A stretch of 46,440 nucleotides of DNA. Origin: Escherichia phage vB_EcoS_AHS24. The translations under genes and the position numbers were made by a program. Of this stretch, positions 33,775 through 36,599 are shown in pieces. Below the pieces are notes generated by a model that saw only the letters and a list, made by a program, of their open reading frames with translations, did no database searches and was not told where the DNA came from. Position 1 is the stretch's first letter, and each line of letters starts with the position of its first letter. Location of the stretch: the sequence record NC_024784.1. One strand, 5' to 3'.

Positions 33775-33900
33775 ATGAAAATTATAGACAAAGAGATGTT
33801 CGAGATTGCGCAGTCTTTCGCAAATGACGCAGTTAAGACTGGATCTGAATATTGCTGGATGTGCGCTCGAGAATATTTAAAAATGGCTTACGGCCTATGA
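33775..33900 (+). CDS. hypothetical small protein
   Basis: 41 aa ORF after cassette leader, ATGA-coupled to next gene. Confidence 0.35.
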   Translation: MKIIDKEMFEIAQSFANDAVKTGSEYCWMCAREYLKMAYGL

Positions 33901-34136
33901 TAGTTGAAACCGGACGCGCCGCTGTATGGGCGCATTGTGGAGAGGCGGAATTGCAGGATGACATCAAGATGATAGGTAAATACTTTGATATTGATGACAT
34001 ATCTGTAGTTTTCAATGGGAAGTTTAGTTATATGAACCAGCGGCCACGCAAGTATGTAAGAGTTCCAGCAACGCCTAGCCTCGCAATGTATCGTGAGGAA
34101 GGTAAGAAGATATTTAAGAAAGGTGCGAAGAAATGA
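33897..34136 (+). CDS. hypothetical protein
   Basis: 79 aa from ATG 33897. Confidence 0.45.
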   Translation: MIVETGRAAVWAHCGEAELQDDIKMIGKYFDIDDISVVFNGKFSYMNQRPRKYVRVPATPSLAMYREEGKKIFKKGAKK

Positions 34137-34390
34137 ATTTACCTGGTCTAGATTTTGATGAGAGTAAGTATCAGGTTGTGTTTTTTGGTGAGAAGCCTTA
34201 TCGGAAGATTCCTTTCTCTGAGTGGATTCCTCCGGACTACCTCGATGTACTGGTGCAAATTGAGATTGGTAAAGCTGAGTTGATGTACTATTCGCCAGGT
34301 TGCAATATGATGATGCCTAGTGAGTATTCACCAGCAATTTCTGCTCTAGAAACTGAGTTTCTTGATTACTGGCTAAAAGAAGTAAAATAG
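34133..34390 (+). CDS. hypothetical protein
   Basis: 85 aa, ATGA-coupled. Confidence 0.5.
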   Translation: MNLPGLDFDESKYQVVFFGEKPYRKIPFSEWIPPDYLDVLVQIEIGKAELMYYSPGCNMMMPSEYSPAISALETEFLDYWLKEVK

Positions 34391-34430
34391 CACTTTTTGT
34401 TAAAACACATCGCCATGGATGGCGTATAGT
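34385..34430 (+). promoter_or_regulatory. promoter cassette copy (T-rich variant)
   Basis: AAATAGCACTTTTTGTTAAA + 22 bp + TATAGT + TTCATCGAAACGAGAGACG; upstream of phosphoesterase. Confidence 0.6.
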
Positions 34431-34541
34431 GTGTTCATCGAAACGAGAGACGATTCAGATGAAAACATTACTACCGTTGATGGCTATGCCATTAACCTTT
34501 ATAATCATGTACTTCATAATCTGCTAACAGGAAATTAAATA

Positions 34542-35675
34542 ATGGCTATAGCTAAAATCACCAACGAAGAGTTAAAGCAAGAACTGGCTAACGGTATGAC
34601 TAACAAGGCAATCGCAGAGAAGTACGGTATGAATATTCGTAACGTAGAGCTGCGTCGCAGCAAGTTGGCTAAGGCTGGGGATGGTCACGGTCGCGATGTG
34701 AGTAACCTAATTCCTCAGGGCTACATGGTTAAAGGTGTATCTAGCCTTGTTGATAATGATGGCAATGTGAAGTTGCAATGGGTTAAGTCCTCTGTTGATG
34801 CAGAGAAGCTTGAGGAGATGATGAATCAAGCGCGAGAGGCATTCTCTAGCGAGCTACCAAAAGAAAAAGCAGTTAAATCTGAAGGTCTGAATTTTGATGA
34901 AGATACTTTAGCTATGTATCCAGTATTTGACCTTCACATTGGCGCAATGGCCCACAAGCATGAGTGCGGAGAAAACTACGACACAGCAACGGCAGAGAAA
35001 GTAATGAACGATTATTTTGACTACGCCGTACAGAAATCTCCAAATTCAAAGAATGCTGTACTAGTGCTAGGAGGTGATCTGCTTCATTATGATTCTTTGG
35101 AAGCCAAAACTCCAGCCAGTGGTCACATCCTGGACAGTGACAGTCGCTACGCCAAGATTGTTTATGTTTGCATTCGAGCGGTTCGCCGCGCAATTCGAAA
35201 CATGCTTAGCAAACATGAAAACGTAGAGGTTAAAGTTATATCTGGTAATCATGATGAAAGTGGTATGGTTTGGTTGCGGGCTGCGCTTGCTGCATTTTAT
35301 GAGGAAGAGCCACGCGTTAGTATTGATGTTAGTCCCGCGGCAATGATGGTAACTAAGTTTGGTTCTACAATGCTTGGTTTCACTCACGGGCATCAAATGC
35401 GTAAAGCTGATACTCGCCTTTCGGTTATGGCTACTGACTGGCGACGTGACTTTGGTTTAAGTGATTATGTATACACCCACTCAGGACACTGGCATTCACA
35501 GAAGATTACAGAGACAAATCTTGGTATTGATGAGGTTCATGGTCAGCTTGGTTCACCAGATGCATATAGTGCGAATGGTGGATGGCGCTCACAAAGGCAG
35601 GCCGCGGTAATCATCTATCATAAAGAGTTTGGTGAGGTTGGTCGCTTTATCTGCCGTCCAGAAATGTTCAAATAA
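34542..35675 (+). CDS. metallophosphoesterase with N-terminal HTH-like domain
   Basis: Calcineurin-like motifs DLHIG, GGDLLH, GNHDE, THGH, GHWH; N-terminal KAIAEKYGMNIRNV HTH-like. Confidence 0.65.
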   Translation: MAIAKITNEELKQELANGMTNKAIAEKYGMNIRNVELRRSKLAKAGDGHGRDVSNLIPQGYMVKGVSSLVDNDGNVKLQWVKSSVDAEKLEEMMNQAREAFSSELPKEKAVKSEGLNFDEDTLAMYPVFDLHIGAMAHKHECGENYDTATAEKVMNDYFDYAVQKSPNSKNAVLVLGGDLLHYDSLEAKTPASGHILDSDSRYAKIVYVCIRAVRRAIRNMLSKHENVEVKVISGNHDESGMVWLRAALAAFYEEEPRVSIDVSPAAMMVTKFGSTMLGFTHGHQMRKADTRLSVMATDWRRDFGLSDYVYTHSGHWHSQKITETNLGIDEVHGQLGSPDAYSANGGWRSQRQAAVIIYHKEFGEVGRFICRPEMFK

Positions 35676-35693
35676 TATCACTTTTTGTTAAAG
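35674..35693 (+). promoter_or_regulatory. degenerate promoter-motif copy
   Basis: AATATCACTTTTTGTTAAAG; no TATAGT at fixed spacing; hairpin AAGCC-attcgag-GCTT follows. Confidence 0.35.
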
Positions 35694-35740
35694 CCATTCG
35701 AGGCTTTTGAGATGCGTCAGCTACAGATATAGGAATCAAA

Positions 35741-35938
35741 ATGATTACAGAGATGATTTTAGTTGCAAGCCTTTCATCTCCATTGGTATCTCAACAGTAT
35801 TGTGAACTTGGAAAAGAGATTTACCATGAAGGAGTGGAATTAAGAACGGTTGTTGATTGGCTTAATCACAGCACGATGAATATTGATGATAAAAAGATTG
35901 TCCTTGAGTGCTATATAGTGGAGGCAAATAAAGTCTAA
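35741..35938 (+). CDS. hypothetical protein
   Basis: 65 aa ORF. Confidence 0.45.
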   Translation: MITEMILVASLSSPLVSQQYCELGKEIYHEGVELRTVVDWLNHSTMNIDDKKIVLECYIVEANKV

Positions 35939-35981
35939 ATAGCACGAATTGCTAAAACGAAAATCAAAAGATGGGGTATAG
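35936..35981 (+). promoter_or_regulatory. promoter cassette copy
   Basis: AAATAGCACGAATTGCTAAA + 22 bp + TATAGTTAC within hairpin GATGGGG/CCCCATC + leader AAACGAGAGGA. Confidence 0.65.
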
Positions 35982-36014
35982 TTACCCCATCTAAACAAAC
36001 GAGAGGATACAAAG

Positions 36015-36200
36015 ATGGCTAAATTCACACAATCAGATGCACAAATCGAAGTTAAAGATGTTGGTTTTGGTAAGACCTTTAAGATTGCGCAGGCATACGG
36101 CTCTAGCGAAGATGATATAAAGGTTGACACTATTAACCTTACGTCTAAAAATGCACGTGAAATCGCTTATGCAATCCTTGCCGCACTTGGAGAGCGTTAA
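36015..36200 (+). CDS. hypothetical protein
   Basis: 61 aa, GAGAGG RBS. Confidence 0.45.
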   Translation: MAKFTQSDAQIEVKDVGFGKTFKIAQAYGSSEDDIKVDTINLTSKNAREIAYAILAALGER

Positions 36201-36400: not shown

Positions 36401-36573
36401 ATGACTAAATTATTCTGCGTTAGCAACAAATCTAAATCACTGCCTTTTACTGTAAATAATCCCTACAGTGGTGAGTACCAGGGTGATGGTAACTACAAGA
36501 TTTATGGCGATGACATGACTTGGATCTTCGCTCCCATTGATGGAGAACTGGTGGAATTTATTATCGAAGACTA
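36401..36573 (+). CDS. hypothetical small protein
   Basis: 57 aa ORF (below ORF-track cutoff) followed by terminator. Confidence 0.35.
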
Positions 36574-36599
36574 ACTTATAAGAAACATCAACTTGCAAA

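Follow-up and report, generated by a model that had tools for sequence, protein, structure and literature searches.

The window, that is, the whole stretch of 46,440 nucleotides that was analysed (NC_024784.1), comes from a phage (AHP24) that is a Rogunavirus of the Drexlerviridae. The locus described here holds an ORF of 377 codons (34542..35675, + strand), with an ATG start and an AGGAA Shine-Dalgarno sequence at 34529-34533, that encodes a metallophosphoesterase (MPE) with an N-terminal helix-turn-helix (HTH) domain. A small gene lies in front of it, and copies of a recurring cassette lie on both sides. The ORF given in a preliminary description of this DNA is real, and its coordinates and translation agree with ours. 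The features of the locus are the following:

34391..34404, + strand: 14-mer core of the cassette, CACTTTTTGTTAAA, which follows immediately on the upstream gene's stop codon
34419..34538, + strand: non-genic ORF of 39 residues that shares the frame of the MPE gene
34425..34430, + strand: -10-like hexamer TATAGT, 20 nt past the 14-mer
34459..34527, + strand: hydrophobic micro-gene of 22 residues, MKTLLPLMAMPLTFIIMYFIIC, with a GAGAG ribosome-binding site at 34445-34449
34554..34676, + strand: HTH (residues 5-45) of the sigma-70 region 4 / LuxR-GerE type, from AlphaFold and profiles
34707..34895, + strand: linker module (residues 56-118), from AlphaFold, with a long beta-hairpin (61-70, 76-85), a helix (87-103) and a variable loop
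34896..35675, + strand: MPE catalytic domain (residues 119-377) and stop codon
35679..35710, + strand: next copy of the cassette, overlapping a weak terminator-like hairpin (GCC-ATTCGA-GGC, then TTTTG)

The promoter-like cassette and the upstream micro-ORFs

A cassette had been placed at 34385, ahead of the ORF, and a recurring 14-mer was indeed located there in more copies than expected by chance. Exact copies were found at four positions of the + strand (30624, 33705, 34391 and 35679), together with three to four near copies carrying one or two mismatches, those on the - strand lying at 39996, 40194 and 41991; the number of matches expected by chance was 0.83. Each copy points toward a downstream gene. 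Of the 99 loci that were fetched, 74 contain the 14-mer, among them loci of T1, Webervirus and the Tempevirinae. The cassette has the form CACTTTTTG(T/C)TAAA, of which the TTG(T/C)TA part resembles a -35 element. In six of the seven oriented copies, the 14-mer is followed after 19 to 21 nt by TATAnT or TATTAT, the copy at 35679 deviating from this layout with 35 nt and TATAGG. A tcatcgaaacga-like stretch downstream is common to five copies, and a possible hairpin (CGCCAT-GG-ATGGCG, z -2.9) was noted in the spacer. Taken together, the 14-mer and the -10-like hexamer resemble a promoter, from which transcription would begin near 34437. We infer that this family-wide promoter-like element functions as a promoter.

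The cassette copy at 35679..35710 marks the end of the two-gene unit. The hairpin after the MPE gene was no stronger than that of shuffled sequence (z -0.19), and terminators are annotated at the matching place in AHP42 and T1. Folding of the leader RNA (34432-34545) was not significantly better than that of shuffled sequence either (z -1.85).

Two leader micro-ORFs, one of them strongly hydrophobic, had been reported ahead of the MPE gene. Both exist as read (34419..34538 and 34429..34527), the hydrophobic one proving to be a conserved gene and the 39-residue one an in-frame artefact. The conserved start of the hydrophobic gene is the ATG at 34459 and not the GTG at 34429, and 14 nt separate its stop codon from the MPE start codon. 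In 71 of the 80 Drexlerviridae loci, the MPE ATG is preceded, at a distance of 1-18 nt, by the end of a hydrophobic ORF of 22-29 residues; the same criterion picked up 57 of 8000 shuffled upstream regions (0.7%). We counted 35 distinct peptides, one of which is encoded by six different DNA sequences, and the gene is retained in Tunavirus and Braunvirinae despite diverged DNA. It is unannotated in the T1 RefSeq record. The peptides gave no match to Pfam, Imm_superinfect included, because they are too short. Judging from this conservation, 34459..34527 is a small gene for a predicted membrane peptide and not merely a leader.

The 39-residue ORF was rejected both as a gene and as an N-terminal extension of the MPE protein, since stop codons break its frame in Braunvirinae and Tunavirus. 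Its conservation is confined to the Rogunavirinae, and transcription is predicted to start only downstream of its ATG. Where AHP24 and AHP42 differ, the replacements are non-conservative in its frame and conservative in that of the hydrophobic peptide. Opt-79 carries a CDS annotation for this ORF, and in e4/1c the ORF is fused to the MPE CDS.

The HTH-metallophosphoesterase protein and its family

The product of 34542..35675 is the ortholog of T1 ST16 and a member of PHROG 704, to which it was matched over its full length in a profile search (residues 4-376 on profile positions 2-389 of 390, E 1.7e-155). The T1 gene has the same position, upstream of the lysis cassette. Family matches numbered 4679 cluster representatives at E<=1e-3, and 2043 of the 50,697 phage records contain one (about 4% of the phage genomes sequenced); the family extends to Jersey-, Dhillon- and lambdoid-type phages. 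In the Drexlerviridae, the MPE gene is a persistent core gene with a fixed position just upstream of the lysis cassette, and an exonuclease-holin-endolysin-spanin module is present in 508 of 522 genomes (PMC13164509). The view that this gene is noteworthy held in part: it encodes a true HTH-MPE fusion, but it is not unusual, as the T1 ortholog is already annotated as "DNA repair exonuclease" or "phosphoesterase." The former label, carried by both PHROG 704 and T1 ST16, is an annotation by similarity, and our literature search found neither a biochemical or genetic study of any family member nor escape mutants touching the protein. The HTH-MPE family is ordinary and catalogued already; the mostly unannotated membrane-peptide gene in front is a modest but definite addition to the annotation of hundreds of genomes.

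The full calcineurin-like motif set previously read in this protein was found in the translation as FDLHIG (D130/H132), GGDLLH (D179/H182), GNHDE (N236/H237/D238), THGH (H282/H284) and GHWH (H316/H318). These supply all five PF00149 motifs (DxH, GD, GNH[DE], H and GHxH) as D130xH132, G178D179, G235N236H237D238, H282 and G315H316xH318. Seven residues (D130, H132, D179, N236, H237, H282 and H318) do not vary among 74 relatives, whose identity to the window protein is only 29-62%, and the domain has a family-specific loop, TPxSGHxLDxDxR, at residues 190-202. The PF00149 score of the window protein is below the gathering threshold (19.7 bits against a cutoff of 21.5 bits, E 0.0013), and 18 of the 74 relatives match this model at E < 0.01. 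The protein has the beta-sandwich MPE fold of the PF00149 superfamily, of which the HTH-MPE family is, by its motifs and scores, a divergent branch.

An AlphaFold model (m9f0f50f4f1c2) built on 74 sequences reached a pLDDT of 92, and its nearest structures are the DNA nucleases PolD-DP1, SbcD and Mre11; a comparison with BFVD returned uncharacterised viral proteins only. A direct search of PDB sequences with the single window protein gave chance matches only. When a profile of the MPE domain alone was compared with 177,635 PDB sequences, 11 weak, sub-threshold matches (E <= 10) were obtained, and the only MPEs among these were Mre11/SbcD (E 0.019-2.7) and the ssDNA endonuclease "Nuclease MPE" (E 0.23). 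In these sub-threshold matches, tDlHlG and GDflH of the profile align with SDWHLG and GDLLH of Thermotoga Mre11.

The N-terminal segment had been said to resemble an HTH, and this is borne out by the profile matches of relatives and by three modelled helices (8-16, 21-27 and 32-44, pLDDT 84-96). Taken alone, the window protein matches Pfam GerE below threshold (residues 13-41, E 0.038, 14.1 against 23.5 bits) and FixJ/TtrR-type HTH at E 0.013-0.075, and the N-termini of relatives match Sigma70_r4_2 (1.5e-9), GerE (2.4e-8), HTH_8 and HTH_1. On these profiles, the evidence for the predicted HTH is weak for the window protein by itself and solid at the family level. Among Drexlerviridae, the recognition helix has two invariant residues, R33 and R38, and two whose conservation is 90% or more, K41 and K44. 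The HTH is missing from a Campylobacter-phage homolog and unmatched in some Vibrio-phage homologs. The linker module, whose G74 and W80 hardly vary within the family, is still present in the Campylobacter-phage homolog that has no HTH (profile positions 78-389 of PHROG 704). When the N-terminal 118 residues served as the sole query of a homology search, two fragments were the only matches.

Gene neighborhood and proposed role

In the window, the MPE gene comes after helicase and VRR-NUC genes, and small unknown proteins are also encoded nearby. The homolog adjoins genes for DNA ligase and a Holliday-junction resolvase in the Campylobacter phage and for SSB in a Vibrio phage, and it follows Endonuclease VII in other lineages. 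In lambdoid prophages, it sits in the nin region after NinB and NinG, directly before antiterminator Q. Recurrent neighbors of the family are dNMP kinase, HAD_PNKP phosphatase and dGTP_diPhyd_N genes (see also PMC13164509); the dNMP kinase and HAD neighbors are found neither in the window phage nor in T1.

We propose that the protein is an HTH-tethered, Rad50-independent DNA phosphodiesterase, produced as a delayed-early enzyme for DNA breakdown or processing during infection, and we give this reading a probability of about 0.5. A binuclear metal centre (D130, H132, D179, N236, H282 and H316/H318) with H237 as the catalytic histidine would carry out phosphodiester hydrolysis, and the three-helix HTH on its flexible linker would keep the enzyme on DNA. 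Because there is no capping domain and no annotated Rad50/SbcC partner, the enzyme would act alone or as a homo-oligomer. The 22-residue membrane peptide and the MPE would be expressed as a two-gene unit from the Drexlerviridae-type promoter cassette, and this unit would close the replication/recombination (delayed-early) block directly ahead of the lysis and late genes. The enzyme could degrade host DNA to mononucleotides that feed salvage, as in the case of T4 gp46/47, or it could trim recombination and replication intermediates. Protection against a Tunavirinae phage is provided by a defence system that senses m6-dAMP set free when host DNA is degraded (bioRxiv 10.64898/2026.01.15.699771); by implication, T1-like phages break host DNA down to mononucleotides.

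Several observations are counterpoints to a role in DNA breakdown. The phage encodes other nucleases (a RecE-type exonuclease and VRR-NUC), as do its relatives (HNH nucleases), and these could degrade host DNA; the resemblance in sequence to Mre11/SbcD does not reach significance; the HTH could have a regulatory function instead of directing the enzyme to its substrate; and the window phage is missing the dNMP kinase and HAD neighbors. The substrate of the MPE, once known, would fill a gap in T1-type phage biology with regard to host-DNA degradation and nucleotide recycling, and it also bears on the triggers of defence systems that sense degradation products. The gene is carried by nearly all T1-like phages and by many lambdoid prophages.

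The transmembrane peptide (22-29 residues) and the HTH-MPE might also form a functional unit in which the peptide recruits or gates the nuclease at the inner membrane, a link that we hold to be quite improbable. If true, such a unit could destroy superinfecting DNA or time the breakdown of the host nucleoid relative to lysis. In Jersey- and K-02-type phages, the gene before the MPE gene encodes an Imm-type superinfection-immunity membrane protein, and the lysis cassette is adjacent across families; both observations fit this model.

The gene neighborhoods could also be read as pointing to nucleic-acid end-healing, in which the MPE would act like the MPE domain of bacterial Pnkp and take off 3'-phosphate or 2',3'-cyclic-phosphate ends, so that DNA or RNA that toxins of the host have cut is repaired jointly with the neighboring kinase or phosphatase genes. 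In Webervirus, K-02 and three metagenomic lineages, the MPE gene adjoins an annotated polynucleotide kinase / HAD_PNKP and a dNMP kinase, and in some cases the stop codon of one gene overlaps the start codon of the next. However, the "polynucleotide kinase" has a DxDGT motif and is a HAD phosphatase, not a kinase, and a phosphatase is therefore already supplied. Because of this, and because the neighbor is absent from the window phage and T1, we consider end-healing unlikely. In addition, the Drexlerviridae have no ligase, and the authors of PMC13164509 take these neighbors as nucleotide-supply genes.

Nucleotide-signal degradation and host takeover had been suggested as well and gained no specific support. 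In such a model, a small-molecule phosphodiesterase would destroy cyclic (oligo)nucleotide immune signals (anti-CBASS, anti-Pycsar or anti-type III CRISPR) or another nucleotide metabolite, and the HTH would be autoregulatory. This is improbable as well, as nucleases outrank phosphodiesterases, cyclic-nucleotide ones included, in structure and sequence searches alike, and no family of the PADLOC anti-phage defence and anti-defence models was matched at E <= 1. Furthermore, the predicted DNA-binding domain is kept in most members, and the MPE gene is a core gene at a fixed position, whereas anti-defence genes are usually sporadic.

The protein might instead be mainly a transcription regulator whose HTH binds phage promoters, perhaps the 14-mer cassette or late ones, in an early-to-late switch, with the MPE as an accessory or sensor domain. 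The constant place of the gene at the boundary before the lysis/late genes, or directly before Q in lambdoid prophages, would suit such a switch, and the Drexlerviridae conserve both the recognition helix and the 14-mer with its -35-like TTG(T/C)TA. This model is nonetheless unlikely, as the catalytic residues are invariant family-wide, in contrast to the HTH, which shows little sequence conservation and is missing from some members, family members also occur in phages without the cassette, and the Drexlerviridae have a separate dedicated regulator adjoining a cassette copy. Finally, a protein phosphatase acting on host or phage phosphoproteins, like lambda NinI (lambda protein phosphatase), which is of the same superfamily and whose gene occupies the slot just before Q on the lambda map where the homolog sits in lambdoid prophages, is very unlikely. 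The PPP motifs GDxHG, GDxVDRG and GNHE are not found as a set in the window protein.

Comparison with related nucleases

The proposed DNA phosphodiesterase can be compared with three groups of nucleases. The small subunit DP1 of archaeal PolD, a 3'-5' proofreading exonuclease, shares only 10% identity with the window protein. DP1 carries an OB-fold before its PDE domain, whereas the model of the window protein has a two-stranded hairpin and a helix and no OB barrel, and neither a DP2 partner nor any DNA polymerase gene is annotated in the phage. The ligase-associated ssDNA endonuclease of Pseudomonas putida (Nuclease MPE / PdeM) is matched far under the cutoffs (15 bits against 150 for TIGR04123); it has no HTH, and the window has no ligase/Lhr gene cluster.

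No match to Mre11/SbcD was obtained with Pfam or NCBIfam, and the best PDB profile match (E 0.019) covers motifs I-II only. The capping domain that lies C-terminal to the nuclease domain in Mre11/SbcD is lacking in the window protein, and no gene for a Rad50/SbcC/gp46 ATPase was found among the annotated product names of a 99%-identical genome annotated across its length. With these three traits absent and a real HTH present, the protein is therefore not a housekeeping Mre11/SbcD without an HTH, the outcome that the preliminary description had named as contrary to its proposal. In place of what is seen in Mre11, SbcD and T4 gp47, it has an N-terminal module of an HTH and a beta-hairpin and its own TPxSGHxLDxDxR loop, and an activity on DNA would make these proteins an HTH-guided, Rad50-independent branch of Mre11-like nucleases.

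A common phage metallophosphoesterase probably related to DNA nucleases

Across 34000-36200 the window shows 100% identity to Escherichia phage bV_EcoS_AHP24 (KF771236, Rogunavirus, Drexlerviridae) and 99% identity to Rogue1 and UDF157lw. Its metallophosphoesterase (MPE) gene is labeled "hypothetical protein" or "phosphoesterase" in the matching records and "DNA repair exonuclease" in RefSeq.

34542..35675, + strand: MPE ORF, 377 aa, with AGGAA 9 nt upstream of the ATG

The translation contains all of the motifs first read from it (FDLHIG, GGDLLH, GNHDE, THGH and GHWH). The preliminary description was correct in its observation, and its interpretation was reasonable in broad terms. The PHROG 704 profile matched the protein over its full length (E 1.7e-155), and Pfam Metallophos scored slightly below threshold (19.7 against 21.5 bits). 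Across 74 cluster representatives that share only 29-62% identity with the window protein, the residues D130, H132, D179, N236, H237, H282, G315 and H318 are unchanged, and conservation reaches at least 90% at H182, D238, G283 and H316; the active site is thus under strong selection. The motif residues are also invariant in 21 Drexlerviridae homologs (61-83% identity).

At E <= 1e-3 the family comprises 4679 cluster representatives (clustering at 50% identity; 999 at E <= 1e-30), and it was matched in 2043 of 50,697 phage records, with hosts including Escherichia, Klebsiella, Salmonella, Vibrio, Campylobacter, Rhodobacter and Ruegeria; its T1 member is ST16. BFVD returned only uncharacterised viral look-alikes, and our literature search brought up no experiments on the family. 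Far from being a peculiarity of this genome, the family is widespread in phages and already catalogued, though uncharacterised.

In the structure search, small generic MPEs (MJ0936, YfcE, Vps29) scored ~13-14, Rv0805 12.4, GpdQ 12.2, purple acid phosphatases ~11 and PPP protein phosphatases ~9. When a profile of the MPE domain only was run against 177,635 PDB sequences, 11 matches were obtained at E <= 10, all weak and sub-threshold, and the only metallophosphoesterases among them were Mre11/SbcD, at E 0.019-2.7, and "Nuclease MPE", an ssDNA endonuclease from Pseudomonas, at E 0.23. In the alignment with Thermotoga Mre11, tDlHlG and GDflH of the family lie opposite SDWHLG and GDLLH. The nearest characterised relatives, reached through sub-threshold matches and with no claim that the protein is Mre11, are DNA nucleases.

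Membership in Mre11/SbcD itself fails on three defining features. The protein has no significant sequence match to Mre11/SbcD; it has no capping domain, its chain stopping at the end of the MPE domain in the AlphaFold model; and no gene is annotated as Rad50/SbcC in the 99%-identical annotated genome. That genome encodes a RecE-type exonuclease, a recombinase, SSB, a primase, two helicases and a VRR-NUC protein, and neither a polymerase nor a ligase. A firm Mre11/SbcD placement without a helix-turn-helix (HTH), which the preliminary description had set against its own reading, was thus not found, the HTH being clear at the family level.

The proposed HTH-like N-terminus is weak for the window protein alone (GerE, E 0.038, aa 13-41; FixJ/TtrR HTH regions, E 0.013-0.075), although the N-termini of relatives match Sigma70_r4_2 (1.5e-9), GerE (2.4e-8), HTH_8, HTH_1, HTH_23 and others, and precomputed Pfam matches of further relatives are likewise to HTH families. 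A profile of the diverse family alignment reached GerE and LuxR-type HTH chains in the PDB at sub-threshold E 0.057-0.52. The AlphaFold model (74 sequences; pLDDT 92.1, pTM 0.77) has the following layout:

aa 8-16, 21-27 and 32-44: HTH helices
aa 45-60: linker, low confidence
aa 61-85: long beta-hairpin
aa 87-103: helix after the hairpin
~residue 119 to the C-terminus: MPE domain

In the recognition helix, R33 and R38 do not vary among Drexlerviridae, and conservation of K41 and K44 is at least 90%. The HTH is absent from the Campylobacter-phage homolog, and in some Vibrio-phage homologs this region is unmatched. The HTH would be an accessory targeting domain added to a conserved hairpin-plus-MPE core.

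An upstream membrane micro-gene and its promoter-like cassette

Two leader micro-ORFs had been proposed upstream of the MPE gene, and only the hydrophobic one held up. From ATG 34459, with GAGAG 9 nt upstream, it encodes MKTLLPLMAMPLTFIIMYFIIC.

Counterpart peptides of the micro-gene
AHP42: MKTLLPLLAVPVTFIIMYFIIC
Braunvirinae: MKILILVALVPLFSFTILYFIVMN
Tunavirus: MKLYFAVVLTPLISFSVMYFIIM
Webervirus: MRYIAILFTAILFTIAIMNYAIQLG
Tempevirinae: MWRLLLLPLPVMMAISIVYVVIMR

An ORF that begins with ATG, is 18-45 residues long, has a mean hydropathy >1 and ends no more than 20 nt from the MPE start was present in 71 of 80 IMG/VR Drexlerviridae loci and in 57 of 8000 shuffled upstream regions. The peptides take 35 distinct forms, a single one being encoded by six different DNA sequences, and in Tunavirus and Braunvirinae the micro-gene's start codon and the stop of the gene before it overlap as ATGA. 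This conserved membrane micro-gene is new and so far unannotated, in T1 RefSeq as well. It appears dispensable, since it is missing in ~10% of loci, one of which seems to carry a disrupted copy. In Dhillonvirus, a hydrophobic ORF of 26 aa lies ahead of the MPE gene. An Imm_superinfect (PF14373) membrane protein lies directly upstream of the HTH-MPE gene in phage K-02 (L010 2771-2962) and a Jerseyvirus (L011 2759-2938), with E 1.3e-13 and 2.5e-15, respectively, a position that parallels the Drexlerviridae micro-peptide.

34476-34496, + strand: hairpin within the micro-ORF, GTTGATGGC-TAT-GCCATTAAC
34419..34538, + strand: 39-aa ORF in the MPE frame, TAA-ATA separating it from the MPE gene

By eye, AHP42 and e4/1c preserve the stem by a double change from A-T to C-G. 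Folding of the entire leader is not significantly better than that of shuffled sequence (z -1.85). The 39-aa ORF was rejected as a gene: in Braunvirinae and Tunavirus several stop codons interrupt its frame, and the substitutions in it are non-conservative. It is a separate CDS in the Opt-79 record (L003 618-737) and is merged into the MPE CDS in the e4/1c record (L005 620-1870); the conserved 22-aa gene is unannotated in both.

The window has seven copies of CACTTTTTG(T/C)TAAA, part of a Drexlerviridae-wide, promoter-like cassette; they are oriented with the downstream gene and mostly lie straight after a stop codon.

30624, 33705, 34391 and 35679, + strand: cassette copies
39996, 40194 and 41991, - strand: cassette copies

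Six of the seven copies are followed, after 19-21 nt, by a TATAnT or TATTAT hexamer, the 35679 copy having a longer spacer than the others, and five share a downstream tcatcgaaacga-like stretch. The spacer from TTG(T/C)TA to the -10-like hexamer (21-23 nt) is longer than a standard sigma-70 promoter allows and holds a hairpin in some copies. Of 99 fetched loci, 74 contain the 14-mer, T1, Webervirus and Tempevirinae among them, and the cassette may represent a factor-dependent middle promoter class. With cassettes at 34391 ahead and 35679 behind, we infer that the peptide-MPE pair in the window is its own transcription unit; in T1 and Braunvirinae no cassette goes with the pair, which is coupled to the gene before it.

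33775-33900, + strand: 41-aa protein, PHROG 2180, weakly like Kil septation inhibitors (PHROG 2055, E 8.6e-5), also preceded by a cassette copy
36401-36574, + strand: 57-aa protein matching DUF7244 (E 4.6e-29), a stand-alone SH3 protein recently described in the Drexlerviridae lysis module (PMC13164509)

Gene neighborhood and possible role

In lambdoid prophages the order is repressor, Cro, O, P-like, NinB, NinG, HTH-MPE, Phage_antitermQ, lysis genes and terminase, making HTH-MPE the last gene of the nin region.

L100 6567-8493 (lambdoid prophage): HTH-MPE directly upstream of antiterminator Q, 4-nt overlap
L107 5001-6726 (lambdoid phage contig): HTH-MPE directly upstream of antiterminator Q

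The slot before Q in lambda belongs to NinI, an unrelated MPE phosphatase, and the two may reflect non-orthologous displacement inside one superfamily. The MPE gene sits in a small island with tail genes on either side in Jerseyvirus and K-02, with lysis genes on one side and terminase genes on the other in Dhillonvirus and in two metagenomic phages, after DNA ligase and near a Holliday-junction resolvase in a Campylobacter phage, and after SSB in a Vibrio phage. A podovirus-like contig has DNA_pol_A, then Endonuclease_7, MPE, HAD_PNKP and dGTP_diPhyd_N. Recurrent immediate neighbors are a dNMP kinase (Webervirus, K-02, L108), a HAD_PNKP phosphatase (Webervirus, K-02, L104) and dGTP_diPhyd_N (L100, L104).

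L008 4172-5238 (Webervirus) and L010 4128-5170 (K-02): gene annotated "polynucleotide kinase" beside MPE

This product name is probably misleading: the protein starts MNRNICIFDLDGTL, a HAD phosphatase signature (motif FDLDGTL), and the P-loop dNMP kinase comes next.

Protection against a Tunavirinae phage is conferred by a defence system that detects m6-dAMP arising from the breakdown of host DNA (bioRxiv 10.64898/2026.01.15.699771). T1-like phages thus probably break host DNA down to mononucleotides, and the MPE is a candidate for the enzyme behind this breakdown. What is new here is the placement of the fold on the nuclease side, with explicit failure of Mre11/SbcD membership, and the constant position at the early-to-late boundary, the pre-Q slot of lambdoid prophages included. 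The DNA-processing and nucleotide-pool neighbors fit an enzyme that converts DNA to nucleotides or one that trims DNA intermediates, and in T4 both jobs are done by gp46/47, a Rad50/Mre11 pair.
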